A DNA stretch of 64,000 nucleotides, from NCBI GenBank assembly GCA_035505375.1, contig DATJQV010000081.1:30596-94595 (forward strand). Direction: 5' to 3'. This document shows, one piece after another, positions 15,766 through 51,604 of this stretch. Origin of the DNA: a bacterium. GTDB taxonomy: Bacteria; Hydrothermota; Tepidihabitantia; Tepidihabitantales; Tepidihabitantaceae. Position 1 is the stretch's first letter; each line of letters begins with the position of its first letter. The notes under the pieces were generated by a model. The model saw only the letters and a program-made list of their open reading frames with translations. It searched no databases and was not told where the DNA came from. Position numbers and translations under genes: made by a program.

Positions 15766-18270
15766 CTACTGGCTCGACATTACCAGTCGCTTGTGGATGC
15801 GGTCGGTCTTGCCTGAGTGCTCATAGTCGAGCACGTACTCGTAGGTGCCCGGCGCGACATGACGGCTATCGTCATTGGTTCCATCCCAAGGTACGATGTG
15901 GACACCGGCGGTCATTGGCACTTGGTCATTGGTCATTAGTCTACGTACTCTCTCCCCGGCACGGGTGTAGATGGTCAGGCTCACCTTGCCGGCTTCGGGC
16001 AGGCCGATGACAAACGAGGTGCTAGTGCTGAATGGATTCGGGAAGTTGTGGATGGAGAAGCCCGGCATTAGGGTCAGGTTCAAGACGGCTGTGTCCGCAA
16101 CCAGCGTGTCATTGCCCAGGCGCCCGGCTATCAGGAACGTCCGTTGAGCAAGCGACGCCGTATCGCCTATCAAACCAGAAGACGCCGTCACATCGAGCGA
16201 GAACCAGCATGACTCGCCTGGGGCGACGTAGCCAAGGTCAGGTATTCCGTCACCATCCGTGTCCGTCAGGTCCTTCGCGCCGGCCGCGTCACGGAGCCAG
16301 ACGTTCCAACCCGCCGACGCGGACGGCCGCGCCACTTCGACAACTCCGCCAGTGTCTCCCTGAACCAGAGCATAGAATCGATAGGTCTTGCCTTGGCCGG
16401 CCTGGAGCTGGTCCGACTGGTCCGGCCCTATCTGCAACGACTGCGGATACGTCTGCACCGAAGAGCTGACCTTGTCGTTGGCACGGTTCACATCACTCGC
16501 CAGCATCGTCGAGCAACTTACCACCCATTGACCCGGCGGCGCTACCCATTCTGAGAACGTCAGGTCCATGGTGGAGTCAGGCGAGAGCGCCTGCGTTACA
16601 GTCACCGTCCTGCTATAGCCCGTACTGATGCGGAACTGCACCCCGAACAATCGCTCCGCAGTGGTTCCGAAGTTCTTGATTCTCACCTTCGGCATCGCGG
16701 TGTCGCCGGCGCGCAACAAGCCAGGCGGCGCGAGAATCGCGACCGCCCCGACATCGTGCCTCGGCGGGCCGTTCACCTGAATCGACTCTCTGAAGGTATC
16801 ATTGGCCGGTTTCTGGTCACCGGCCAGCGACGTGTAACACGTGACCGGGACTGAACCGACCGGACCCGCAGTCCACGCAGGGAACGCCAGTGTTTCCTGC
16901 GGCACCGAGACCAGCGTCTCCTGTACAGTTTGGGAATAACCGGAGCCGATTTCCATCGTCACCGGGAGTGTACCCGAAGTCAGACCGAAGTTGCGGACGA
17001 CAGCACGCGGGACATACGTGCTACCTGAATCGGCGATTCCGGGTGGCGACAGAATGGCTACCGGGCCGACGTCGAGAACGCCGTTGGTCTTGATGAGAAA
17101 GACGTCATCGCTTCCTGCACCGGCCGAGGCGGTGTAGCCCGCGACGACGTAGCCGCCATCGGCGGCCTGCCGGACCGAGTAGCCTTCGTTGTCGCCCCTG
17201 CCGCCATAGGTTCTGGTCCAGAGCGTGTCGCCCTGAGAATCAGTCTTGACGAGATAGACGTCACCGGGTCCTACAAAATACTGGGAGAAGGTCGCGCCGA
17301 CAATAATGTAGCCACCATCGGCAGTCTGCTGGACCGAGGAGCCGTACCCGCCGGGCGCTCTCCCATACACTCTGGTCCAAAGAGTATCGCCCTGAGCATT
17401 GGTCTTGATGAGATAGACATTAGAGTTGGTAGGTGTCCCCGGACCGAAGGAAGAGGTCCCGCCCCCGATGATATAGCCGCCGTCAGTAGTCTGTTGGACT
17501 GAGTTGCCCACGTCATCGCTTGTCCCGCCATAAGTTCTGGTCCAGAGCGTATCGCCTTGGCCGTTGGTCTTGACAAGGTAGACGTCATACCCCCCTGCAC
17601 CAAACGAGCCGGTACTGCCGGCGATGATGAAGCCGCCATCGGCAGTCTGACAAACCGAGTTCCCCACATCGGTGCTGGCCCCGCCCAAAGCTCGGGTCCA
17701 GAGCGTATCGCCTGAGCTATTTGTCTTGATGAGATAGACATTGGCGCTGTTCGGTGTGCCGGGACCGAAGGAGTAGGTGTAGCCTGCAATGACGTAGCCG
17801 CCATCCGAAGTCTGCTCGACGGAGTTGCCCACTTCGTCATCCAGCCTGCCAATAGCTCTAGTCCAGAGTGTGTCGCCATGAGCGTCGGTCTTGATGAGAT
17901 AGACATTGGCGTAGTCGGGCGCGCCCGGGCCAAAAGTGTTGGTGTAGCCCGCGATGATGTAGCCGCCATCCGAAGTCTGCTGGACAGAGTAGCCCTCGTC
18001 ATCGCCTGTCCCGCCATAGGTTCTGGTCCAAAGCGTATCGCCTTGAGCGTTAGTCTTGATGAGATAGACATCATAATTCCCTGCACCAAAGGACGCAGTC
18101 AGCCCCGCAATGATGTAGCCGCCATCCGAAGACTGCTGGACAGACCGGCCCTCGTCGTCATCTGGCCCGCCGTAGGTTCTCGCCCAGTTCGTCTGGGCAG
18201 AGGCAATCGAAGCAAGGCAGCCAGCGGACAGCAAGACGCTGACCACCGGCAAGACGCCGATCCTCATCAC
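15766..18270 (-). CDS. Large secreted repeat protein: about 7 tandem ~50-aa beta-propeller-like units, CARDB-like domains, T9SS/FlgD-like C-terminal domain
   Basis: 834 aa. Signal MMRIGVLPVVSVLLSAGC. Repeats of GDTLWTRTYGG..DD.G.SVQQT.DGGYIIAG.T.SFG.G..DVYLIKTN. C-terminus ...LTIYTRAGERVRRLM...VPWDGTNDDSRHVAPGTYEYVLDY. Confidence 0.8.
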   Translation of the reverse strand: MMRIGVLPVVSVLLSAGCLASIASAQTNWARTYGGPDDDEGRSVQQSSDGGYIIAGLTASFGAGNYDVYLIKTNAQGDTLWTRTYGGTGDDEGYSVQQTSDGGYIIAGYTNTFGPGAPDYANVYLIKTDAHGDTLWTRAIGRLDDEVGNSVEQTSDGGYVIAGYTYSFGPGTPNSANVYLIKTNSSGDTLWTRALGGASTDVGNSVCQTADGGFIIAGSTGSFGAGGYDVYLVKTNGQGDTLWTRTYGGTSDDVGNSVQQTTDGGYIIGGGTSSFGPGTPTNSNVYLIKTNAQGDTLWTRVYGRAPGGYGSSVQQTADGGYIIVGATFSQYFVGPGDVYLVKTDSQGDTLWTRTYGGRGDNEGYSVRQAADGGYVVAGYTASAGAGSDDVFLIKTNGVLDVGPVAILSPPGIADSGSTYVPRAVVRNFGLTSGTLPVTMEIGSGYSQTVQETLVSVPQETLAFPAWTAGPVGSVPVTCYTSLAGDQKPANDTFRESIQVNGPPRHDVGAVAILAPPGLLRAGDTAMPKVRIKNFGTTAERLFGVQFRISTGYSRTVTVTQALSPDSTMDLTFSEWVAPPGQWVVSCSTMLASDVNRANDKVSSSVQTYPQSLQIGPDQSDQLQAGQGKTYRFYALVQGDTGGVVEVARPSASAGWNVWLRDAAGAKDLTDTDGDGIPDLGYVAPGESCWFSLDVTASSGLIGDTASLAQRTFLIAGRLGNDTLVADTAVLNLTLMPGFSIHNFPNPFSTSTSFVIGLPEAGKVSLTIYTRAGERVRRLMTNDQVPMTAGVHIVPWDGTNDDSRHVAPGTYEYVLDYEHSGKTDRIHKRLVMSSQ

Positions 18271-30849: not shown

Positions 30850-31098
30850 TCAGGACGAACCGAAGAGCCGGAGTTCGAGTTCGCCGCGGTCGATTCCGAG
30901 ATGATGCGCCACGCTTGCCAGGATGTACTCAAGCGTGCCCACGCGAAGCGACTCGTGGGCCGGTATCGTGACGTGGTGCTCGCCACGCTCGTGCGTCGTC
31001 AGGCGCATGTGGCTGCCGACGCAATGCGTCACCTGGTAGCCGAAATGCCCGAGCAGGTGCGCCAGGTGCTGGCCCGAGACATCGCGCGGCAGCTTCAC
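30850..31098 (-). CDS. hicA: HicA-like toxin (YcfA/HicA mRNA interferase fold)
   Basis: From the in-frame GTG at 31098: VKLPRDVSGQHLAHLLGHFGYQVTHCVGSHMRLTTHERGEHHVTIPAHESLRVGTLEYILASVAHHLGI.... This shows the G-S-H motif and size typical of HicA. GTGA overlap with the upstream gene. Confidence 0.65.
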   Translation of the reverse strand: MKLPRDVSGQHLAHLLGHFGYQVTHCVGSHMRLTTHERGEHHVTIPAHESLRVGTLEYILASVAHHLGIDRGELELRLFGSS

Positions 31099-31307
31099 GG
31101 CGTGATTGTCTCTTCGCGCACGACCTGCACGAACCGCAGCTTGATCGCGTCCGGCTTGGCGCACTCCGCGGCGTGGCACACCGCGGCCTCGCGCACGTTG
31201 GTGTAGAGTTCCTCCAGCGTATCGGCTTCGGTCACGATGCACCCGCACGACGACCGGGCAACAAACCCGCCGTCCCGCTCCTCGACCATGAACTCAACCG
31301 TTGCCAT
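31095..31307 (-). CDS. hicB: HicB-like antitoxin (UPF0150 fold)
   Basis: 70 aa. MATVEFMVEERDGGFVARSSCGCIVTEADTLEELYTNVREAAVCH... follows the HicB N-domain pattern (..E.DGG(Y/F)VA......C.T.G.TLEE....(I/V).EA...). TATAAT lies about 35 nt upstream (plus-strand attata at 31344-31349). Confidence 0.6.
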   Translation of the reverse strand: MATVEFMVEERDGGFVARSSCGCIVTEADTLEELYTNVREAAVCHAAECAKPDAIKLRFVQVVREETITP

Positions 31308-31470: not shown

Positions 31471-31746
31471 GCTGCGCTGAAAGCTCGTCAGAAAGCTCGT
31501 TTCAGAGTTCGCCTGAAAGTACCTTAGAAAGCTTACTCGAAAGCTCACTTCATAGCATCTTCCATTGCTCAGCTCAAAGCTCGTCACATCGCATCGCGCA
31601 TCGCTCATCTCAAGGCTCAGCGCATTGCTTCTCACATCGCTCGCTGCAAAGCTCCGTCGAAAGCTCGCGTCAGAGTTCTTTTGAAAGCTCGATTCAAAGC
31701 TCATCTCAAAGCTCGTTTCATCGCTTCTTCGAAAGCTCCCCAAGAG
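31471..31746 (-). repeat. 12-nt phased degenerate array D (23 units)
   Basis: A plus-strand unit start (G-C/T-T/A-C/T, mostly GCTC) occurs at every 12th position from 31471: 31483, 31495, ..., 31735. I checked all 23 by hand. Units look like gctcgtcagaaa gctcgtttcaga gttcgcctgaaa .... Plus-strand 31579-31606 is the reverse complement of a 28-nt block matching array C 19403-19430 at 23/28 positions. Confidence 0.85.
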
Positions 31747-32423: not shown

Positions 32424-32776
32424 CTGTGCGTCCGCATCCGTGCGTCCGCTTGACTCCGGGCCATGCACGAATAACATCCCTACTGATGCAAGGCCAAATC
32501 CGGCCAAACCCGACGTCTCCGTCGCTGCTCGGAACTTCGTCCTCAGGTCCTGACGTGAATCCTCCATCCTCCGACCTCGGTCTTTCTTCCTCGCCTCACT
32601 CTTCAGTCCTCTTTCCTCAGTCCTTTTCTCGTCCCGCGCCCCGCCGCAAGCGTATTGCCTCGCCTGTCCGCAACCCCGCCCGAAATGAGTGAGGTTTCCC
32701 TGAAATCCCGTGAGCAGTTGTCCCCGGAGACGCGTGGCGCTTGTCGGCCCGTACGTCCTAGCGGGTTTTTAGGTGC

Positions 32777-32805
32777 TTGACAGCACGATGGGCTCGACCG
32801 ATAAT
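32777..32805 (+). promoter_or_regulatory. Near-consensus sigma70-type promoter facing the RM-gene stub and the downstream cassette
   Basis: TTGACA (32777-32782), 17-nt spacer, GATAAT (32800-32805). Confidence 0.45.
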
Positions 32806-32810
32806 CGAGC

Positions 32811-33041
32811 ATGTCGTGCCCAAGTGTGGCAAGGCCCGCGTCCCGCGACCTTATTTCCTCGCCCGTCCGCAACACCGCCCGACATGAGCAGGCGTCTCCG
32901 CAATTCCTTGACCGACTCGACCAGAACCGCGAGGTCTTCCTCTCCGGCGACTACAAAGAAGAACAACTCCGCCTTGAGTTCCTCAACCCCTTCTTCACCG
33001 GGCTTGGCTGGGACATGTGTGAGAAAGGAGGCTCATCGTGA
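32811..33041 (+). pseudogene. 5' remnant of an Eco57I-type (type IIG) restriction-modification / N6-DNA methylase gene, truncated after about 60 codons
   Basis: Translation ...FLDRLDQNREVFLSGDYKEEQLRLEFLNPFFTGLGWDM matches the characteristic N-terminus (..SGKYNE.QLR.EF(I/L)NPFF.ALGWD(V/M)) of this enzyme family as I recall it. Homology stops at GWDM, where the GGAGG and GTG start of the next gene begin. Confidence 0.6.
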
Positions 33042-34240
33042 GCGTTTTCGGCAAGCCGCTTGACGTGGTCGCCAGCACAGACATCGAGGCCCTGAAGTCC
33101 ACCGGAGCCCAAGAGTCCCAGTATCTAGACTACAAGAGAGACGCGTATGGGAGCGACACGAAAGAACTGCTGAGAGACATCACTTCGTTCGCAAACGCCT
33201 ACGGCGGCGAGGTCATTGTTGGGGTCGAAGAAGACGGGGACGGACGGCCGCAGAGCATCCCTGGTCTCAATGAGTACAAGTTGGAGTGCACTCGCTACGA
33301 ACAGAGCGCAATGACCGGCATTGATCCGAGAATCCCCGGACTCAAGGTCTACGCTGTCCCATTCGCCGACCCAGCGAAAGGGGTGATCATTGTCAGCGTT
33401 CCACGGAGCAGCCGTGCTCCGCACATGGTTACCGTTGGCGGCGAGGACAGATTCTGGAGGCGTCACGGCAGGCACAAGAGCAGAATGACGACAGCGGACA
33501 TCGGCGAGTCGTTCAGGTTCGGACGTGAGTACCTGAAACTCTCGGAAGACTACCTGGAGGGTGCCAAGAGAGCAGCCCTGAACTCAGGGATCTCCGAGCC
33601 AAGGCTGGTTCTTGGCGCGCTGCCGGCATTGCAGCCCGAGCGACCCATCGGACCCGGCGAGGCATGGGCCAGAGAAATCCTGGCGAGGCCGCACGGCAAG
33701 CAGAATCGCGCGTCGCTGTTGCCCGAGATGGACCCCCAGCACGAGGAGATACGACCCACGTTGAGAGGCTTGGTCAGATTGTGGCGGGCTGAGCCTCAAC
33801 AACCGTCCCTTGCGTTACACAGGAATGGATACCTAGAGCTCCGCAACAGGTGCATCACGGGCATCGGCGGTGTTCGCGAAGACGAGATCGAGTTTGGGGG
33901 CTTCGCATCGCTCTGTGTCGATTTCTTCCGGCTCGCGTCTCAAGTCTACCATAAGCTAGGGTATGAAGGCGAAGTCTTCGCCTTCGGTGCCATTGCGAAG
34001 ACGGAAGGACTGAGACTACGCGACATGCCGGTCGCCCTCACCGGCGGTTCCGACCATCGCTCCCGCGACGCCGACCCGCGGGGATGTCCGGAAGTCCCCA
34101 ACCTAGTCGTAGAACCGTGGTCGTACTCGACGAGTGAGACACCTGAGTCACAAGCTCAACGGTTCGCGGACGTGGTATACAACGCATTCGGGCACGAGCG
34201 CGCACCCTCGATTAAGGACAGCCAATATGGTCACGTCTGA
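33038..34240 (+). CDS. AlbA_2 / Schlafen-like (divergent AAA, putative nucleic-acid-binding) domain protein with an unknown ~260-aa C-terminal region
   Basis: 400 aa. GGAGG lies 7 nt upstream of the GTG. N-terminus ...DIEALKSTGAQESQYLDYKRDAYGSDTKELLRDITSFANAYGGEVIVGVEEDGDGRP... fits the E..LE(F/Y)K......(I/L)..(I/L).AFAN..GG.(I/L).(I/V)GV.D.G pattern of AlbA_2. Confidence 0.65.
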   Translation: MSVFGKPLDVVASTDIEALKSTGAQESQYLDYKRDAYGSDTKELLRDITSFANAYGGEVIVGVEEDGDGRPQSIPGLNEYKLECTRYEQSAMTGIDPRIPGLKVYAVPFADPAKGVIIVSVPRSSRAPHMVTVGGEDRFWRRHGRHKSRMTTADIGESFRFGREYLKLSEDYLEGAKRAALNSGISEPRLVLGALPALQPERPIGPGEAWAREILARPHGKQNRASLLPEMDPQHEEIRPTLRGLVRLWRAEPQQPSLALHRNGYLELRNRCITGIGGVREDEIEFGGFASLCVDFFRLASQVYHKLGYEGEVFAFGAIAKTEGLRLRDMPVALTGGSDHRSRDADPRGCPEVPNLVVEPWSYSTSETPESQAQRFADVVYNAFGHERAPSIKDSQYGHV

Positions 34241-34440
34241 TCTGTGCCATGGTACTACGACCTACAAGGCGGTCGGCGCGCTACGACCAGAGGACAGGAA
34301 GCATGATGATGGGCGGCACACGCCTTGAGATGACAAGACTGCCCGTTTCCGCTGCAACCTGCCCATGACGGAAGGCGTCCGACCCTCAGTCCGAAAGAAG
34401 GGACCTTGACCCGCGACAGGAAACGGTTCGTTCCACGGAT

Positions 34441-35235
34441 TTGCTCGTGATGGCGGCAGACACCGTCTGGGTTGGAATTCGACAGACTGGATCTACTGCC
34501 ACCATCCTCGCCCTGATAACTGCGCTGGCCGCAATTGGGGCCTCGATCCTCGCGGCCATCTTCTCCTTGGGGCGCGAGAAGAGAATGCTCAGGGTCCGTC
34601 TGCGGTATGATGCCTGCAGGGCGGTGTCCCGTCAGCTGGACAAGACCCAAGCGGCCCTCGGGTCCATCAGTACGCTGGTTGCCACAATTGGCCATGGTTG
34701 GATGCCGTCGCAAAGCCCTCCCAAGCGCGTGGCGAGTGGTGAGGCGCGGGCCGACGTGATACCTGAACTGGCGGGCACGTACTACCAGGATGAGGAGTCG
34801 ATTTCCTTCGCTCGGCTCCAGATTAGGCTGTCGAGGGAGACCGTGGGCATTGCCAAGACATTTCTAGACCAAGAGTTCCTACTGGCCGACATGCGGCCGG
34901 CCGTCACGGCGCTCAACGAGTCGTCTCTCCGGCTGCATACCGCACTCGACGACCTGGAGACGACGCTCCGCAAGTTCGCTGACGGTAAGGCTACCCACGA
35001 GGAGGTCACGGCCAGAAGCGGCAAGGCACTGACTGTCCTGTTCAGGTACGAAATACACCTATTTCAGTTCGCATGGGCGCTTCAGCGACTCGCGGTGGGC
35101 GATGTCACTAAGCATCAGAAGCCTCTAGATTTGTTCACCACCAATGACCCCGAGGAACTCATTCTGACAAAAGACGGGTTCGTTGCGGCCAAACACACGG
35201 AGTTCTTCAATCCATCCAGGAAGAGCCACGGCTGA
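34441..35235 (+). CDS. Hypothetical protein with one N-terminal transmembrane helix and a helical C-terminal region
   Basis: 264 aa (TTG start in the track; in-frame ATG at 34450). TM segment TATILALITALAAIGASILAAIFSL. No motif recognised. Confidence 0.45.
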   Translation: MLVMAADTVWVGIRQTGSTATILALITALAAIGASILAAIFSLGREKRMLRVRLRYDACRAVSRQLDKTQAALGSISTLVATIGHGWMPSQSPPKRVASGEARADVIPELAGTYYQDEESISFARLQIRLSRETVGIAKTFLDQEFLLADMRPAVTALNESSLRLHTALDDLETTLRKFADGKATHEEVTARSGKALTVLFRYEIHLFQFAWALQRLAVGDVTKHQKPLDLFTTNDPEELILTKDGFVAAKHTEFFNPSRKSHG

Positions 35236-35336
35236 CGTGGGCGCTTCTATGAGGGGTCTCCTGTCCACAACCGCGCGCGACCTCGCTGTCAGCCTGGCTA
35301 CGACCTGTCCAAGATACTCGACGTTGCACGGCGCCC

Positions 35337-37664
35337 GTGCAGAAGGGCACGAGCATGAATAGCGATTCACTGAGTCCGAGCGTTCCCCGCATTCCTGGTC
35401 TCAGGGATTCCGTGTCCGGGGCCGCGTACAAGAAGGGCGATGTCATTGGCCAGAAGTATGAGGTCTATGGCATTCTGGGAGCAGGCGGATTCGGCATCGT
35501 CTTTCTGGTCTATTCCCACGAGACCAAGTATGTATACGCCCTGAAGACCTTCCGGGATGAATACCTCGCAGATTCTCATGCGAGAGAGCGGTTTCGCAAG
35601 GAGGCAAGTGTCTGGGTGGACCTGGAGCGACACCCGTATCTTGTGCGGGCCTCCTACGTGGAAGAAGTCGCCGGCAGGTTGTTTGTCGTCATGGAGCATA
35701 TTGCTCCAGACGAGCACGGGCTGAATACACTCGAGGGCTATCTGCGACAAAGGCCACCTGACCTGGCCCAGAGCCTGCGCTGGGCAATCCAGTTCTGCTA
35801 CGGAATGGAATACGCGTACTCAAAGGGCATCCGTTGTCATCGGGACATCAAGCCTGCTAATATCATGATAAGTCAGGACAAGACGGTGAAGATTACAGAC
35901 TTCGGCCTGGCGGGGGTGCTCGGCCCGTCTCAGGCCGTCTCGGGAATCAGGTTGAACATCCAGCAGGGAACGGTCGGTCTGTCAGGCCAGACAATGGAAG
36001 GGACAGGCTTTGGCACACCGACCCACATGTCTCCGGAGCAGTTTACTGACGCTGCCTCCTGTGACGAGAGAAGCGACATCTACTCCTTCGGGGTTGTCCT
36101 GTTCCAGATGGCGAGCGGCGGCCGGCTTCCCTTCCTTACGCCTTTGCCCGAGGTGATAGGAGAATCGGAATCGGCCCGGTTCTGGAGGGAGATGCATCGC
36201 CTGCACACAAGAGCTCCCGTGCCAAAGCTCAACTCGCCGCTGTTTTCCATCATCCACCGCTGTATGGAGAAGGAACCCGGAAAGAGATACAGGGGCTTCG
36301 AGGAACTCCGCGGGGTCCTCGAACCATTGCTCCGACGTCTGACCGGAGAAGCCGTGAGACCGACCGAGTTGGGAACGCTAGAGGCTTGGGAGTGGAGCAA
36401 CAAGGGTTTCAGCCTCGACAGCCTGGGCCGCCACGAAGAGGCGCTTCGCTGCTTTGACAAAGCCCTGGAACTTGACCCGCGGGACGCAGCAGTCTGGAAC
36501 AACAAGGGAACCAGCCTCGGCAGTTTGGGCCGACACGAGGAGGCAATCCGCTGCTACGACAAGGCTCTGGAACTTGACCCGCAGCACACAAGCGCTTGGT
36601 ACAACAAGGGAACCGTCTTCTCCGGCCTGCGCCGCCACGAAGAGGCAATTCGCTGCTACGACAAGGCCTTGGAACTTGACTCGCGTCTGGCGTCGGCTTG
36701 GGAAAACAAGGGTACCAGCATGGGCAGACTAGGCCGCCAAGAGGAGGCTATCCGCTGCTACGACAAGGCTCTGGAACTCGACCCGCGAGATGCAAAAGCA
36801 TGGCGCAACAAGGGCAAGAGACTCGCCGACCTGAGTCGCTACGAAGAGGCGCTTATCTGCTTTGACAAGGCTCGGGAACTTGAGCCGCAGAACACGGAGG
36901 TCTGGTACGACAAGGGGTTCTGCCTCCACCACCTGAGTCGCTACAGTGAAGCAATCCGCTGCTTTGATAAGGCCTTGGAACTCGACCCGCGTCTGGTGTC
37001 GGCTTGGAACAACAAGGCTGTCAGCTTAAGCAGACTGGGCCGCCATGAGGAGCAGATTCGCTGCTACGACAAGGCCCTAGAACTCGACCCGCAGGATGCA
37101 CTAACCTGGCACAACAAGGGCCGTGGCCTCGGCGGCCTGCGCCGCTACGAGGAGGCGATTCGCTGCATCGACAAGGCCCTAGAGCTTGACCCGCAGAAGG
37201 CTGCGGCCTGGTACGACAAGGGGTTCTGCCTCCACCACCTGAATCGCTACGGTGAGGCAATCCACTGCTTTGACGAGGCCTTGGAACTCGACCCGCGGGA
37301 CGCAAGTACCTGGTACAACAAGGGTAGCGACCTCCATACTCTGGGCCGCTACGAGGAGGCGATTCGCTGCTTTGACAAGGCCTCGGAACTTGACCCGCGG
37401 AACGCAAGAACCTGGTACAACAAGGGCTGTTGCCTTGATGACCTAGGCAGGCCCGAGGAGGCCATAGGCTGCTTTGACAAAACCCTGGAACTTGACCCGC
37501 GGTACGGCATGGCATGGTACGCAAGGGCACTGGCACAGGAGAAACTTGGCCGAAGACAGGAGGCGGTTCAGTCGTACAGGCAGTTCATCGCGCTCGCCCC
37601 GGCCCAGCACGCGGAAGAAATCGCATACGCTCGGCAGCGTGTCCGCGAACTGGAAGCGAAGTAA
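35337..37664 (+). CDS. Hanks-type Ser/Thr protein kinase fused to 12 tandem TPR units
   Basis: GAGGFGIVF (G-loop), YALK, HRDIKPANIM, DFGLAG, GTPTHMSPEQ. These are followed by 12 units of ..W.NKG..L..LGRHEEAIRCYDKALELDP.... An alternative start is the ATG at 35355. Confidence 0.9.
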   Translation: MQKGTSMNSDSLSPSVPRIPGLRDSVSGAAYKKGDVIGQKYEVYGILGAGGFGIVFLVYSHETKYVYALKTFRDEYLADSHARERFRKEASVWVDLERHPYLVRASYVEEVAGRLFVVMEHIAPDEHGLNTLEGYLRQRPPDLAQSLRWAIQFCYGMEYAYSKGIRCHRDIKPANIMISQDKTVKITDFGLAGVLGPSQAVSGIRLNIQQGTVGLSGQTMEGTGFGTPTHMSPEQFTDAASCDERSDIYSFGVVLFQMASGGRLPFLTPLPEVIGESESARFWREMHRLHTRAPVPKLNSPLFSIIHRCMEKEPGKRYRGFEELRGVLEPLLRRLTGEAVRPTELGTLEAWEWSNKGFSLDSLGRHEEALRCFDKALELDPRDAAVWNNKGTSLGSLGRHEEAIRCYDKALELDPQHTSAWYNKGTVFSGLRRHEEAIRCYDKALELDSRLASAWENKGTSMGRLGRQEEAIRCYDKALELDPRDAKAWRNKGKRLADLSRYEEALICFDKARELEPQNTEVWYDKGFCLHHLSRYSEAIRCFDKALELDPRLVSAWNNKAVSLSRLGRHEEQIRCYDKALELDPQDALTWHNKGRGLGGLRRYEEAIRCIDKALELDPQKAAAWYDKGFCLHHLNRYGEAIHCFDEALELDPRDASTWYNKGSDLHTLGRYEEAIRCFDKASELDPRNARTWYNKGCCLDDLGRPEEAIGCFDKTLELDPRYGMAWYARALAQEKLGRRQEAVQSYRQFIALAPAQHAEEIAYARQRVRELEAK
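36370..37640 (+). repeat. Tandem ~102-nt DNA repeats encoding the TPR array
   Basis: Recurrent strings such as gaggaggc(a/g)at(c/t)cgctgctacgacaaggc(t/c)ctggaact(t/c)gacccgc recur at ~102-nt spacing. Confidence 0.8.
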
Positions 37665-37668
37665 GGCA

Positions 37669-40092
37669 ATGGAAGGACTCTCAGCTGGCACCTCCCTGGC
37701 TTGGCAGATTGCAGCCTCGGAGGCTGCGGCGGCGAAGCATCACTACATCGAGAAGGAACACATGATGACTGGTGTTCTGAGCCTTGAGAAGGTGCTCGGC
37801 GGCGAGAGCACAGAAATCACGCCGGACGTACGGGAACTGCTGCAAGCAGAGTGCGACGGCGTTGAGGACGTGCTGCGGGCCTTCGAGCTTGACTCGACCC
37901 AACTGCGACGGCAGGTCAGGGAAGGGCTTGGCATGGGCAGCTTCAAGCGGACAGAGAAGGTGGTTCACCGAAGTGAGGATTGCAGGCGGGTCTTCGCGAG
38001 GGCAGAGCAGATGGCGCAGCCGGGCCAAGCTACCTGCCTTCATCTGCTGGCGGCCATACTGGAAGAGCCGGGTGATGTCATCAGCGGCGTCCTTGCAGAG
38101 GCCGGCGTGAAGCCGACAGACCTGCGGGCACGGACCTTGGCCAACCTGCAAGGACAGAATCAACCGCCAAGGACGCCAAGAGCGCCGAGGGGTGGTGTAG
38201 CAGGAGCGGACGAGAAAGAGCACGAGCCGGAGAGGGTGCAGGCGGGCGAGCAGAAGCAGGACTTGACCGCCACGCATTACCTTGACCGCTATGGCCGCGA
38301 CCTTACGCAAGAGGCCAAGGAAGGGAAGCTCGGCCCGATCATCGGACGCAGGCGGGAACTACTCGAAGTAATCCAGACTCTTGCCCGCCGCACTAAGAAC
38401 AACCCGGTGCTCGTGGGTGAGGCCGGGGTGGGTAAGACCGCAATCGTGGAAGCGCTGGCTATCCGAGTCGCAGAGGGCAAGGACTCGCAAGTCCTTGGCG
38501 GCAAGCGCATCATCGAGCTGAACGTCGGCTCTCTGGTGGCAGGGACCAAGTACCGGGGCGAGTTTGAGGAGAGGCTCACGCGCATCATCAAGGAAGCGCA
38601 GGCGCATCCGGAGGTGATTCTCTTCATCGATGAGCTGCACAATGTCGTGGGTGCGGGCAGGGCCGAGGGGAGCATAGACGCGGCCAATATCATGAAGCCG
38701 GCGCTGGCTCGGGGAAACCTGAGTTGTATCGGGGCCACGACCATCGCCGAATACCGCCGGTACATTCAGCCGGACTCGGCCCTGGAGCGACGGTTTGAGA
38801 AGATCATCGTGAATGAGCCGAGCGCGGATGAGACAATGGCGATACTCAGGGGCATGAGGCCGAAGTGGGAGGAGCACCACAAGGTACGGATTGCCGACAA
38901 GGCGCTTGAGGCGGCAGTGAACCTTTCCGTGCGCTTTGACCCAGACCATCAGTTGCCCGACAAGGCGATTGACCTCGTGGACAAGGCCGGGGCGCGAACA
39001 CGGGTTCCCGTCCTTAGCATGATGCCGGGCAACGGAAGACGGAAGACGGATGACGGACGACGGGAGGCAGGCGGCGAGGTTACAGAGCTGACCGTGGCGC
39101 AGGTGTTGTCCGACAAGATTGGCGTGCCGCTGGAAGTCGTCACCGGCCATCTGGAAGGGATGGCGCAGTCCCGGCTGCTGGAACTCAACTCGTTCCTGAA
39201 GAAGCGGCTCATTGGTCAGGATGAGGCGGTGGAGCGCGTGTGCCGGCGGCTCCTCATGGCCCATGCCGGGCTGGCCCAAAGGCGCGGCCCGCTTGGGGTC
39301 TTCCTTTTCCTCGGACCCACCGGCGTGGGAAAGACGCAACTGGCGAAGCTGATGGCGGAGTTTCTCTTCGGCAGCGAGTCCGACATGATACGGCTCGACA
39401 TGTCCGAGTACATGGAAGAGCACAGCGCTGCCAAGCTCATCGGGTCGCCGCCCGGCTATGTTGGTCATGAGGAGGAAGGGCAGTTGACCGGCAGGCTGCG
39501 GACGAAGCCCTATTCAGTTGTCCTGCTGGACGAGGTGGAGAAGGCTCACCCGAGGGTCTTTGACCTGTTCCTGCAGGTCTTCGATGAGGGCCGCGTCACC
39601 GATGCCAAGGGCAGAACCGCGGACGCAAGGAACGCCATCTTCGTCATGACCTCCAACATCCAGGCCGGCAAGCAGTTCAATGTCGGTTTCCAGGATAAGG
39701 CTGAATCAAGCGCAGCGATGCAGCATGAGGTCAAGGCGCGGTTCCGGGCCGAGTTCATCAATCGGGTTGACGAGCAGATTGTCTTTCGGCCGCTGAGCGA
39801 GGAGGACGCGAGGAGAATCCTGCGGCCGATGCTGGACGCGATTGCAGAGGAACTGCGCAAGCGGCACAACGTCACGCTGCACGTCAGCGAGGAAGCGGAG
39901 CTGGCACTCGCGCAGGCAGGCTTTAGCCCGGAGTACGGGGTCAGGGAGCTTCAGCGCACAGTGGAGCGGCTCGTCCAAGCCCCTTTGAGCGGGCTGATTC
40001 TGAGCGGCAGGCTGAAGGAACATGACGCCTGGCAGCTCGTGCGCGGCGAACAGGGGCTCGTGGTTGTGCCGGTCGTCCGAGAAGCGCACTAG
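37669..40092 (+). CDS. ClpC/ClpA-like double-ring AAA+ unfoldase (Clp_N repeats, D1, no long M-domain, D2)
   Basis: The ATG at 37669 lies 4 nt after the kinase TAA. Clp_N-like ...LAWQIAASEAAAAKHHYIEKEHMMTGVL and ...CLHLLAAILEEPG. D1 NPVLVGEAGVGKTAIVEALA...ILFIDELH. D2 FLFLGPTGVGKTQLAKLMA...VVLLDEVEKAH. NVGF lies at the position of the ClpC VGF / ClpA IGL ClpP-docking loop. Confidence 0.9.
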   Translation: MEGLSAGTSLAWQIAASEAAAAKHHYIEKEHMMTGVLSLEKVLGGESTEITPDVRELLQAECDGVEDVLRAFELDSTQLRRQVREGLGMGSFKRTEKVVHRSEDCRRVFARAEQMAQPGQATCLHLLAAILEEPGDVISGVLAEAGVKPTDLRARTLANLQGQNQPPRTPRAPRGGVAGADEKEHEPERVQAGEQKQDLTATHYLDRYGRDLTQEAKEGKLGPIIGRRRELLEVIQTLARRTKNNPVLVGEAGVGKTAIVEALAIRVAEGKDSQVLGGKRIIELNVGSLVAGTKYRGEFEERLTRIIKEAQAHPEVILFIDELHNVVGAGRAEGSIDAANIMKPALARGNLSCIGATTIAEYRRYIQPDSALERRFEKIIVNEPSADETMAILRGMRPKWEEHHKVRIADKALEAAVNLSVRFDPDHQLPDKAIDLVDKAGARTRVPVLSMMPGNGRRKTDDGRREAGGEVTELTVAQVLSDKIGVPLEVVTGHLEGMAQSRLLELNSFLKKRLIGQDEAVERVCRRLLMAHAGLAQRRGPLGVFLFLGPTGVGKTQLAKLMAEFLFGSESDMIRLDMSEYMEEHSAAKLIGSPPGYVGHEEEGQLTGRLRTKPYSVVLLDEVEKAHPRVFDLFLQVFDEGRVTDAKGRTADARNAIFVMTSNIQAGKQFNVGFQDKAESSAAMQHEVKARFRAEFINRVDEQIVFRPLSEEDARRILRPMLDAIAEELRKRHNVTLHVSEEAELALAQAGFSPEYGVRELQRTVERLVQAPLSGLILSGRLKEHDAWQLVRGEQGLVVVPVVREAH

Positions 40093-49195: not shown

Positions 49196-51604
49196 GTGAA
49201 CGTCCGTCCCGCCCGTGGTCCGTACAACCGAAGCGCCCTTGCCCACAACCGGGCCGCGTGCCCCATGGCCGTGCTGTTGGCCATTTGCTGCTGTCTGTCG
49301 GCGGCCAGCGGACAATCCGTGGAAACCACCATCTACCTACCCGGAATGGTAAACCCGGGGTGCCTGGCGTACGACTCGGCCAACAACACCATCTATGTCG
49401 GCGGCGATGGCACCTGTGTGCTCGCGATTGATGGGGCTACGAACCAGAAGATTGCCTGGATCCCAGCCGGGTCGAATGTGGGGGCCATCTGCTACAACCC
49501 GACGAACAACAGGGTCTACTGCGCGAACTGCTGGGACTCCACGGTGACGGTGATAGACGGCGCGACCAACGGGGTCATCGCCACCGTGATAACAGGCAGC
49601 AACCCTCTTGCCCTCTGTTACAACCCGGCCAACAACAAGATCTACTGCGCGAACAACGGGAGCAACAACGTGACCGTGATTGACGGCGCGACCAACGGTG
49701 TCGTCGCGACCGTGCCCGCAGGCAACACGCCTTGGGCTATCTGCTACAATCCTCAGAACAACAGAGTCTACTGCGCGAACTCCGATTTCCTTGGCAACGT
49801 TACAGTAATTGACGGCGCGACTAATGGGGTCGTCGCGACCGTGGCCACAGGCAGCTTTCCTCAGGCCCTCTGTTACAACCCGACCAACAACAGGGTCTAC
49901 AGCGCGAACATGGGGAGCGACAACGTGACCGTGATTGACGGGGCGACCAACGGCGTTATCGCTACCGTGGCCTCAGGCCGTTTCCCAGGGGCATTCTGCT
50001 ACAACCCGACCAACAACAAGGTCTACTGCGTGAATAGGGGAGGCGTAAGCGTGACCGTGATTGACGGCGCGACCGACAGCGTCATCGCGACCACGGGCGC
50101 AGGCAGCGGACCGAACGCCCTCTGCTACGACGCGACCAACAACAATGTCTACTGCGCGAACTTGGGCGACACCACTGTGACCGTGATTGACGGTGTGACT
50201 AACGGGGTCATCGCGACCGTGGCCGCAGGCAACGGACCGTACGCCCTCTGCTACAACCCAACCAACTACAAGGTCTACAGCGCGAATCGGTACGGCAACA
50301 ACGTGACCGTGATTGACGGGGCGACCAACGGCGTTATCACGACCGTGGCCGCAGGCCGCTTCCCTCGGGCACTCTGCTACAACCCGACCGACAATAGGGT
50401 CTACTGCGCGAACGATAGCAGCGCCAACGTGACCGTGATTGACGGCGCTGCCGACAGCATCATCACCACCGTTACTGCAGGTAGCAACCCTCATGCCCTC
50501 TGCCATAACCCGGCCAACAACAAGGTCTACTCCGCGAACAAGGGCAGCAGCAACGTGACCGTGATTGACGGCGCGACCAACGCGGTCATCGCCACCGTGA
50601 TAACAGGTAGCAACCCTCTTGCCCTCTGTTACAACTCGGCCAACGACAAGGTCTACTGCGCGAACGAGGGCAGCGACAACGTGACCGTGATTGACGGTGC
50701 GACGAACGGGGTCATTGTCACAGTGACTGCAGGTAGCAACCCTCTTGCCCTCTGCTACAATCCGGCCAACAACAAGGTCTACTGCGCGAACGAGGGCAGC
50801 GGCGGCGTGACCGTGATTGACGGCGCGACCAACGGGGTCATTGCCAACGTGATGACAGGTAGCAACCCTCTTGCCCTCTGCTACAACCCGACCGACAACA
50901 AGGTCTACTGCGCGAACGGTGGCAGCGGCAACGTAGCCGTGATTGACGGCGCGGCCAACACGGTCATCGCGACCGTGGCCGCAGGCACTAACCCTTGCGC
51001 TCTCGGCTACAATCCGACCAACAACAAGGTATACTGCGCCAACGATAGTAGTGGCAACGTGACCGTGATAGACGGCGCGACAAATGCGGTCGTCGCCACC
51101 GTGATAACAGGTAGCAACCCTCTTGCTCTCTGCTACAACCCGACCATCAACAAGGTCTACTGCGCGAACGGTGGCAGCAACGGCGTGACCGTGATAGACG
51201 GCGCGACCGACGGCGTTGGCGTGACCATCGGGGTCGGCGGGTACCCGATTGATCTAGCCTGGAACCCGGCCCAGAGCCGGATGTATGTCGCGAACTACTA
51301 TGGCTCCACCATCTCAGTCTTGCGCAATTCGCACCCGGGAATCGAGGAGAGCCCCAAGCCGCAGGTCGCATGCTCCAAGCCGTTGCCGACCGTCATCCGC
51401 GGCGTGCTGCTCCTGCCGAAAGCCACAAGCCGCAAGCCGCACGCTGCAAGCTTGCTCGACATCAGCGGCAGGAAGGTGATGGACCTGCGGCCGGGCCCGA
51501 ATGATGTGCGGGCGCTGGCGCCGGGCGTGTACTTCGTGAGGACAGCCCAAACCCAGACTCAAGTCCAAGCCCAAGCCATCCGCAAGGTCGTCCTGACGCG
51601 CTAG
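49196..51604 (+). CDS. Secreted YVTN-family beta-propeller repeat protein (about 15 units) with T9SS-type C-terminal domain
   Basis: AAAGGAGG lies 5 nt before the GTG at 49196. Signal ...MAVLLAICCCLSAASGQ. Units of GSNPLALCYNPANNKVYCAN.GS.NVTVIDGATNGVIATV. C-terminus ...LLDISGRKVMDLRPGPNDVRALAPGVYFVRT...IRKVVLTR. Confidence 0.85.
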   Translation: MNVRPARGPYNRSALAHNRAACPMAVLLAICCCLSAASGQSVETTIYLPGMVNPGCLAYDSANNTIYVGGDGTCVLAIDGATNQKIAWIPAGSNVGAICYNPTNNRVYCANCWDSTVTVIDGATNGVIATVITGSNPLALCYNPANNKIYCANNGSNNVTVIDGATNGVVATVPAGNTPWAICYNPQNNRVYCANSDFLGNVTVIDGATNGVVATVATGSFPQALCYNPTNNRVYSANMGSDNVTVIDGATNGVIATVASGRFPGAFCYNPTNNKVYCVNRGGVSVTVIDGATDSVIATTGAGSGPNALCYDATNNNVYCANLGDTTVTVIDGVTNGVIATVAAGNGPYALCYNPTNYKVYSANRYGNNVTVIDGATNGVITTVAAGRFPRALCYNPTDNRVYCANDSSANVTVIDGAADSIITTVTAGSNPHALCHNPANNKVYSANKGSSNVTVIDGATNAVIATVITGSNPLALCYNSANDKVYCANEGSDNVTVIDGATNGVIVTVTAGSNPLALCYNPANNKVYCANEGSGGVTVIDGATNGVIANVMTGSNPLALCYNPTDNKVYCANGGSGNVAVIDGAANTVIATVAAGTNPCALGYNPTNNKVYCANDSSGNVTVIDGATNAVVATVITGSNPLALCYNPTINKVYCANGGSNGVTVIDGATDGVGVTIGVGGYPIDLAWNPAQSRMYVANYYGSTISVLRNSHPGIEESPKPQVACSKPLPTVIRGVLLLPKATSRKPHAASLLDISGRKVMDLRPGPNDVRALAPGVYFVRTAQTQTQVQAQAIRKVVLTR

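Follow-up and report, generated by a model that had tools for sequence, protein, structure and literature searches.

An apparently undescribed pair of a Hanks-type kinase-TPR gene and a ClpC-like unfoldase gene suggests phosphorylation-controlled protein degradation

What does a bacterial protein kinase do when its gene stops four nucleotides short of the gene of a Clp unfoldase? The question is raised by a stretch of 64,000 nucleotides from contig DATJQV010000081.1, referred to here at its full length as the window, which encodes a Hanks-type Ser/Thr kinase fused to tetratricopeptide repeats (TPRs) and, directly downstream, a ClpC-like double-AAA+ unfoldase. A first-pass annotation of the window had placed these two genes in a candidate four-gene defence cassette, together with genes for an AlbA_2/Schlafen-like protein and a membrane protein. 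The four co-oriented open reading frames (ORFs) are present where that annotation put them, and their domain make-up is borne out by Pfam and by reading of the sequences. The comparative data point to a smaller unit: the kinase-TPR/ClpC-like gene pair, which is apparently undescribed and, judged from its sequence, suggests phosphorylation-controlled protein degradation. The ORFs of the window were scanned with Pfam, NCBIfam, and PADLOC; fold models were generated with AlphaFold2 (AF2) and fold searches were run with Foldseek. The pair consists of the following features.

35337-37664, + strand: gene of the Hanks-type Ser/Thr kinase with ∼11-12 TPRs, first gene of the pair (Pfam)
35478-35495, + strand: kinase catalytic motif GAGGFG
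35535-35549, + strand: kinase catalytic motif ALK
35838-35861, + strand: kinase catalytic motif HRDIKPAN
35898-35906, + strand: kinase catalytic motif DFG
36030-36044, + strand: kinase catalytic motif SPEQF
36398-37506, + strand: TPR array
37662-37671, + strand: junction of the kinase stop codon TAA (37662-37664), a 4-nt spacer GGCA, and the Clp start codon ATG (37669-37671)
37669-40092, + strand: gene of the ClpC-like double-AAA+ unfoldase, 807 amino acids, second gene of the pair (Pfam, NCBIfam)
37669-38160, + strand: Clp N-domain, amino acids 1-164
38416-38439, + strand: Walker A of the first Clp AAA+ module (D1)
38620-38640, + strand: Walker B of D1
39313-39336, + strand: Walker A of the second module (D2)
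39520-39546, + strand: Walker B of D2
39679-39690, + strand: NVGF, candidate ClpP-docking loop

The spacing between the kinase stop and the Clp start is as first reported, and such a junction suggests co-translation. The recurrence of the pair was assessed by scanning 185,579 species-representative genomes (GTDB) with the Clp protein and comparing all four window proteins with the returned loci (L numbers) by tblastn. Linkage was counted at 25 loci with a Clp of at least 50% identity and at least 3 kb of upstream sequence. An orthologous kinase-TPR gene is present at 19 of them and a divergent Hanks kinase-TPR gene adjoins at five, leaving a single locus with neither (L018). The orthologous kinase domains are 43-82% identical, versus ∼25-34% for unrelated Hanks kinases. 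The kinase gene mostly lies directly upstream of Clp in the same orientation, −4 to 117 nt away, and both genes are also found together in all five metagenome loci checked, which were retrieved via protein look-ups. Among the more than 40 loci of the same scan that carry distant Clp relatives (49% identity or less), a kinase adjoins in only three (L034, L039, and L043). The proposal that kinase and Clp form a coupled unit holds up, with the tight junction kept in most loci and co-occurrence across phyla.

The Clp orthologues are 50-89% identical over their full length. Their hosts, by the labels of the metagenome-assembled genomes (MAGs), are WOR-3, Dehalococcoidia, Chloroflexia, Anaerolineae, Nitrospirota, Cryosericum, Verrucomicrobiae, Scalindua, Pirellulales, Geobacteraceae, Vicinamibacteria, and Methanocellaceae; the host groups comprise WOR-3, Chloroflexota, Nitrospirota, Acidobacteriota, Planctomycetota, Verrucomicrobiota, and Methanocellaceae. 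All-against-all clustering of every ORF at 36 loci returned Clp and kinase-TPR as the only clusters common across loci and no third conserved gene. Other neighbours are sporadic: PP2C at three loci, FHA at three, and SIR2_2 with DUF2971 at one. In the closest relatives of the window, with 86-89% identity in Clp, homology to the window DNA covers 35293-40086 only, that is, the kinase and Clp genes. Pairwise identities of kinase and Clp correlate across loci (r = 0.89, Mantel p ∼2e-4).

The kinase domain spans amino acids 41-330 (PF00069 Pkinase, E 2.4e-36) and displays the hallmarks of a Hanks-type Ser/Thr kinase, namely the Gly-rich loop, the beta3 Lys, the catalytic HRDxKxxN motif, the DFG motif, and an APE-like motif. 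The motifs GxGGFG, ALK, HRDxKPxN, DFG, and GTPxxMxPEQF are kept in all 23 orthologues, and intact catalytic motifs predict an active Hanks-type enzyme. The activation segment is long and rich in Ser, Thr, and Gly. TPR_2 matches the protein in 12 stretches (Pfam), and the array is encoded by a 102-nt tandem repeat of 10.9 copies. The orthologues range in length from 573 to 1853 amino acids with a highly variable TPR part, and the surplus length is all TPR in the three long orthologues scanned (L004, L014, and L022). Two tandem kinase-TPR paralogues are present in L003, L007, and L011. Solo kinase-TPR paralogues of 1413-1715 amino acids, with no Clp and with a conserved neighbourhood of their own, occur in WOR-3 relatives (L194, L195, L196, and L234).

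The Clp protein harbors the Pfam domains AAA, AAA_lid_9, AAA_2, and ClpB_D2-small, with a weak match to Clp_N, and Walker A and B are intact in both AAA+ rings. The NVGF motif aligns to the VGF ClpP-docking tripeptide of B. subtilis ClpC (phmmer alignment), and a hydrophobic-Gly-Phe/Leu tripeptide is retained in most of the 25 orthologues, the Methanocellaceae copies having QGF. Two AAA+ modules with Walker motifs and a hydrophobic-Gly-Phe/Leu loop in D2 place the protein among unfoldases of the ClpC/ClpA type, with predicted dependence on ClpP. The M-domain, a coiled coil that in canonical ClpC mediates MecA binding and the resting state, is lacking: the linker between D1 and D2 is ∼35-40 residues shorter than in ClpC (phmmer), and the AF2 model shows a short, disordered linker at 446-467 without a coiled coil. 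The best sequence and fold matches in the PDB are ClpC, with ClpC-ClpP complexes as the top Foldseek matches. The scores on the NCBIfam models are 655 for ClpA (TIGR02639, cutoff 993), 726 for ClpB (TIGR03346, cutoff 1232), and 620 for ClpV (TIGR03345, cutoff 885), and the protein is also under the curated cutoffs of the ClpG and ClpK models. Membership in ClpA, ClpB, or ClpV was rejected, as the scores fall under every NCBIfam cutoff.

The double-AAA+ core is 40-47% identical to canonical ClpC, ClpA, ClpB, and ClpV, and the domain order is ClpA-like. The N-domain is modelled by AF2 as an eight-helix double repeat (predicted local distance difference test, pLDDT, ∼90) and is barely alignable with the N-terminal domain (NTD) of ClpC, at 2.9 bits. 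It carries conserved motifs specific to the family (AWQ, IExEH, LRRxxR, HRSxxC, and CLHLL); HRSxxC and CLHLL, together with the near-obligate kinase neighbour, set the subfamily apart from the canonical Clp families. By these alignments the protein is a member of a distinct, ClpC-derived subfamily.

Two variants of the Clp gene were observed. In L173 (7001-9937) and L174 (1375-4311), an N-terminal adenylate/guanylate cyclase domain (PF00211) replaces Clp_N in a Clp of 71% identity (protein P0085); the kinase-TPR gene is still upstream, a PhdYeFM-type toxin-antitoxin (TA) pair lies in between, and an AAA_15/AAA_21 ATPase gene follows downstream. In L068 (7197-7990) and L080 (3282-4292), 5'-truncated Clp remnants are 94-95% identical in DNA to the window Clp gene (window 38650-39622) and share a breakpoint just past the D1 Walker B; one is frameshifted and the other has an in-frame stop. 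These remnants represent either second copies that have decayed or chimeras created by assembly at a conserved segment.

The closest known parallel in logic is the McsA/McsB-ClpC system of the Bacillus/Staphylococcus ctsR operon, in which a kinase gene likewise lies directly upstream of the gene of a ClpC-type double-AAA+ unfoldase with a Clp_N-type N-domain and a VGF ClpP-docking loop. McsB/phosphoarginine (pArg) activates ClpC via its NTD (PMC12583610). In that system phosphorylation gates unfolding and degradation, and the genes of the pair suggest a similar logic by analogy. The comparison with McsB-ClpC had been drawn in the first-pass annotation, and the presence of the ClpP-docking VGF loop makes it a reasonable lead to function. 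The pair is not a member of that system, and none of the four window proteins matches McsA or McsB in Pfam or NCBIfam. The window kinase belongs to the Hanks Ser/Thr type and bears a TPR array, unlike the ATP:guanido phosphotransferase McsB, and the window unfoldase differs from ClpC in the missing M-domain, the highly divergent N-domain, and a Leu at the position of ClpC E106.

A second parallel is the control of ClpCP by PrkA in Listeria. There, the Hanks kinase PrkA controls the degradation of MurA by ClpCP via ReoM (PMC7286690), so that a Hanks Ser/Thr kinase governs ClpC/ClpP proteolysis. In contrast to the window pair, the Listeria genes are unlinked, PrkA is a PASTA sensor of the membrane, the ClpC involved is the canonical housekeeping enzyme, and phosphorylation prevents degradation. 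Full-text literature searches returned no description of a Hanks kinase-TPR + Clp operon, and a term search of the main comparative-genomics survey of NTP-dependent conflict systems (Kaur et al. 2020, PMC7159879) returned no such kinase-TPR + Clp pair.

The reading that we favour, and to which we give about an even chance, is that the pair is a two-gene operon in which the kinase-TPR protein controls unfolding by its dedicated Clp, with degradation via ClpP, in a logic like that of McsB-ClpC. It builds on what the sequences show: the two genes are linked and conserved, their catalytic motifs are intact, the ClpP loop is present, and the M-domain is missing. The TPR array would be a protein-binding scaffold that chooses clients, or a receiver of signals. 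The kinase would then phosphorylate the client, the unfoldase, or both, and the identity of the phosphorylated protein is a conditional part of the model, as is its dependence on ClpP. The Clp hexamer, whose N-domain is a variant of the Clp_N double repeat particular to this family, would unfold the client and pass it to ClpP for degradation, a handover suggested by the retained VGF loop of the ClpC type. The kinase may activate the unfoldase via the Clp N-domain, and control by the linked kinase would replace control of the MecA/McsB type, since the repressive M-domain is missing. The biological role would be either stress or regulatory proteolysis, or defence. A bolder version, which we put forward tentatively and consider rather less probable, is a phospho-Ser/Thr 'mark-and-destroy' machine, in which the TPR-kinase tags proteins and an M-domain-less ClpC-like unfoldase reads the tag or the kinase with its N-domain and feeds ClpP; horizontal transfer would have carried it across at least eight bacterial phyla and into methanogenic archaea, and it may serve in surveillance against invaders.

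Several observations weigh against control of degradation by the kinase. Plain vertical co-inheritance would likewise yield the correlation of kinase and Clp identities. A reciprocal scan with the kinase domain found Clp at 13 of the 27 loci with an orthologous kinase and enough flank, and no Clp within the flanks at the other 14. The dependence is asymmetric: the Clp subfamily is almost never without a kinase-TPR neighbour, and the kinase family also occurs solo. Since archaea generally lack ClpP, the presence of the pair in Methanocellaceae MAGs means that dependence on ClpP may not be universal. Two of these MAGs (L015 and L016) have a gene order around the pair identical to that of L030, labelled Acidobacteriaceae UBA1307; at least one of the three bin assignments is probably wrong, which bears on the archaeal occurrence of the pair. 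Canonical ClpC has two pArg pockets, in which E32 and E106 are the key residues, and its M-domains maintain the resting state (PMC12583610). Leu124 of the window protein, within CLHLL, aligns with E106, the second pArg-pocket glutamate, in an alignment that covers query 61-166 only. The first N-domain repeat keeps an 'E-H' (IEKEH), which lies outside this alignment (query 61-166) and may be equivalent to E32. As far as these alignments go, any phospho-recognition by the N-domain cannot follow the pArg mode of ClpC at both sites.

One alternative is that the kinase chiefly regulates the unfoldase, or that the unfoldase services the kinase, instead of the kinase marking substrates. Phosphorylation would switch the assembly or activity of Clp, or Clp would service the kinase by remodelling or turning over the long TPR protein; Clp may even act without ClpP, as a chaperone or remodeller. 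The asymmetric dependence, with Clp almost always beside a kinase and the kinase often solo, agrees with this alternative, as does the occurrence of the pair in archaeal MAGs, where ClpP is usually absent. The loss of the M-domain removes the canonical resting-state control of ClpC and therefore calls for another regulator (PMC12583610). Against it, the docking tripeptide is kept across most of the family, the archaeal QGF included, which favours a protease partner, and this alternative is on the whole unlikely.

A second alternative is that the pair is an anti-phage system of the abortive-infection type, in which the variable TPRs sense a phage protein, the kinase fires, and Clp/ClpP destroys host or phage proteins. 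It draws on the great variation of the TPR arrays and the tandem kinase duplicates, on a patchy distribution over many phyla including archaea, with the pair at different positions in related WOR-3 MAGs, and on the neighbours. In the window these are hicAB, AlbA_2, and a remnant of a restriction-modification (RM) gene; elsewhere they include SIR2_2 and DUF2971 between kinase and Clp (L009), TA pairs (L173-L175), an AAA_15/AAA_21 ATPase (L173), and an OLD-like TOPRIM protein (L083). The kinase domain also scores on the PD-T4-6, mad6, and Stk2 models, with an E value of 5.8e-49 on PD-T4-6, models that match generic Hanks kinases, including kinases in the flanks. PADLOC returned single-domain matches only for the four proteins: mad6 and PD-T4-6 for the kinase, PDC-M37B and DolB for Clp D2, and also mad8. 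For the pair these are matches at the level of generic domains, with no complete known system. Among 150 neighbouring ORFs at 23 loci scanned with PADLOC, extra kinases alone recur among the top 25 families listed. Many neighbours are housekeeping genes (GlnA, AsnA, SmpB, HypF, and Lon), and no orthologue was found on viral contigs (best match 40%) or plasmids (best match 47%). The data neither support nor exclude a defence role for the pair, and we consider it improbable.

Known defence systems with related domains were also compared. Membership in Dodola, PDC-M37, or MADS was rejected, as no partner models (DolA, PDC-M37A, and the MADS methyltransferase or other mad genes) matched the four proteins. 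None of PD-T4-6, Stk2, MADS mad6, Dodola DolB, and PDC-M37B pairs a TPR-kinase with a double-AAA+ Clp, and the window kinase differs in architecture from PD-T4-6 and Stk2 by its TPR array.

The kinase-Clp interval is repeatedly invaded by small accessory genes: SIR2_2-like and DUF2971 genes in L009 (6060-8132), DUF5677, a HigB-like toxin, and a helix-turn-helix antitoxin in L175 (3941-6961), and a Phd antitoxin pair in L173 (6362-6951).

The four-gene cassette proposed for the window adds two genes upstream of the pair, and these are listed below with the promoter-like site that precedes them.

32777-32805, + strand: sigma-70-like promoter match, TTGACA-17-GATAAT, 11/12, 233 nt upstream of 33038
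33038-34240, + strand: gene of the AlbA_2/Schlafen-like protein, 400 amino acids (PF04326), an accessory neighbour outside the conserved pair
34450-35235 (alternative TTG start at 34441), + strand: gene of an orphan protein with a single N-terminal hydrophobic helix, outside the conserved pair

The AlbA_2 protein scores 48.9 bits on PF04326 SLFN_AlbA_2 (cutoff 25.3). Its AF2 model has a pLDDT of 86.6, and the N-terminal ∼170 amino acids match the folds of DIP2311, SLFN11/13/14, and the SAMD9 tRNase domain. The Foldseek matches (3lmm, SLFN11/13/14, and SAMD9; E 2e-5 to 1e-3) place it in the Schlafen/AlbA_2 family, and nothing in the PDB matches the C-terminal half. With 17 matches among 5.8 billion clusters and no relatives in the GTDB scan, the protein belongs to a small family. 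The membrane protein has no Pfam, NCBIfam, or PADLOC match, and its N-terminal hydrophobic helix was read directly from the sequence. A single homologue (66% identity) was found among 1.84 billion representatives, on a 1-kb contig.

Common orientation speaks for one functional cassette of all four genes, as do the one strong promoter-like site upstream of AlbA_2, found close to the ∼230 nt first given, and the intergenic gaps. Neither the gap between the AlbA_2 and membrane protein genes nor that between the membrane protein and kinase genes holds a terminator-like site, and the sole + strand match (39286-39300) falls within the Clp gene. Accessory genes of differing kinds also adjoin the upstream side of the pair, or interrupt it, elsewhere. 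Against these points, the gaps of ∼200 nt from AlbA_2 to the membrane protein gene and ∼100 nt from there to the kinase gene compare with 4 nt from kinase to Clp. The two upstream genes were not found at any other kinase-Clp locus, the closest WOR-3 relatives included, and the membrane protein is an orphan. The AlbA_2 homologues are solitary, with no kinase, Clp, or membrane protein gene beside them; one lies beside an EcoRV-type RM system and TA genes (L088), one beside an integrase with Arm-DNA-binding (L090), and one beside Bro-N/RhuM (L091). The comparative sequence data thus largely refute the four-gene cassette, which has become very improbable. Of the co-occurrence first expected for kinase-TPR, clp, and AlbA_2, the kinase and Clp part recurs and the AlbA_2 part does not. 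A role of AlbA_2 as the sensor of the system likewise finds no support, because it is absent from the other kinase-Clp loci and solitary where it occurs.

That the adjacency of kinase and Clp is functionally meaningless, an abundant kinase family lying by chance beside a Clp paralogue, is hardly credible: these lineages have many Hanks kinase-TPR genes, with extra kinases also present in the flanks, but an orthologous kinase lineage lies directly upstream on the same strand, overlapping or near-touching, in more than eight phyla with otherwise unrelated flanks, and most of the more distant Clp paralogues have no adjoining kinase.

The region that holds the pair in the window has the flanks first described, with a MatE/MurJ transporter gene and HicA upstream and a Peptidase_S15/abhydrolase gene downstream. 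Further features upstream of the four genes are the following.

30850-31098, − strand: HicA toxin gene, context
31095-31307, − strand: gene of a 70-amino acid putative HicA partner, context
32811-33041, + strand: ORF of 76 amino acids resembling the N-terminus of N6-methylase/type IIG enzymes (weak tblastn match)
32843-32888, + strand: lineage-specific conserved motif

The closest relatives of the window are MAGs labelled candidate division WOR-3. The genes past Clp (hydrolase, PEGA, radical SAM, DUF362, ScpA, DUF488, and NadA) form a syntenic core block in related WOR-3 MAGs, and in two of those MAGs the kinase-Clp pair is located elsewhere; in the L003 MAG it is followed by glnA and asnA, and in the L004 MAG two lipoprotein-like ORFs precede the hydrolase gene. 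In a comparison of the site between MATE and hydrolase, the contigs of four MAGs end just upstream of the hydrolase, and the more distant WOR-3 genome L097 has no synteny. Because the downstream genes are a core block and the pair is located elsewhere in the L003 and L004 MAGs, the 9.5 kb of the window from 30.6 to 40.1 kb can be read as variable DNA flanked by core blocks, island-like in character yet assembled from independent modules as a mosaic. The pair shares this region with accessory genes that are separate from it: AlbA_2, the membrane protein gene, hicAB, and the RM remnant.

Two stubs of a type IIG RM gene had been reported in the region. The first, the ORF at 32811-33041, has no Pfam match and is borne out only weakly by tblastn, in which it matches the N-termini of proteins annotated as N-6 DNA methylase/Eco57I-type methylase (E 4e-3 to 7e-3). 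The second shares with the first only a non-coding motif of ∼46-55 nt. This motif of ∼55 nt (…GCCGCAAGCGTATTGCCTCGCCTGTCCGCAACCCCGCCCGAAATG) has two copies in the window, at 32634-32690 and 32843-32888, and is also found in L003 (two copies), L021, L068, and L183-L188, with one to three copies per genome in a handful of WOR-3-related MAGs. The exact pattern occurs at 6 loci in the 185,579 genomes. Each copy lies just 5' of a different, variable ORF, and in L003, L021, and L068 the motif is a few kb upstream of the kinase-Clp pair or its remnant. Possible roles are a leader or promoter in common, or a site of recombination.

Few ORFs are present from hicB to the RM-like remnant (31-33 kb), where GC skew is strongly negative (∼-0.2) and a 36-nt unit is repeated 3.2 times in tandem (31540-31654). 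Two larger tandem arrays, at 49484-51213 (126-nt unit, 13.7 copies) and 17370-18071 (165-nt unit, 4.3 copies), are presumably the phased arrays reported earlier and likely encode repeat proteins. Rfam (gathering threshold) and tRNA scans of the whole window returned nothing.

The AlbA_2 and membrane protein genes are unrelated hitch-hikers, and a four-gene defence system would be the wrong catalogue entry for this locus. In bacteria, the arginine-kinase/ClpC system of Firmicutes is the main known case of proteolysis directed by phosphorylation. If the 'mark-and-destroy' version is true, the pair would be a Ser/Thr counterpart of the pArg/McsB-ClpC degron system. An operon this widespread, in which a eukaryote-like Ser/Thr kinase is wired to a ClpC-like unfoldase of its own, would extend the known cases and suggests that AAA+ proteases may have come under phospho-Ser/Thr control independently and recurrently. 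The pair offers a compact two-gene system for studying how Hanks kinases choose substrates through TPR arrays, and its M-domain-less unfoldase represents a natural experiment in the alternative control of a ClpC-type machine.

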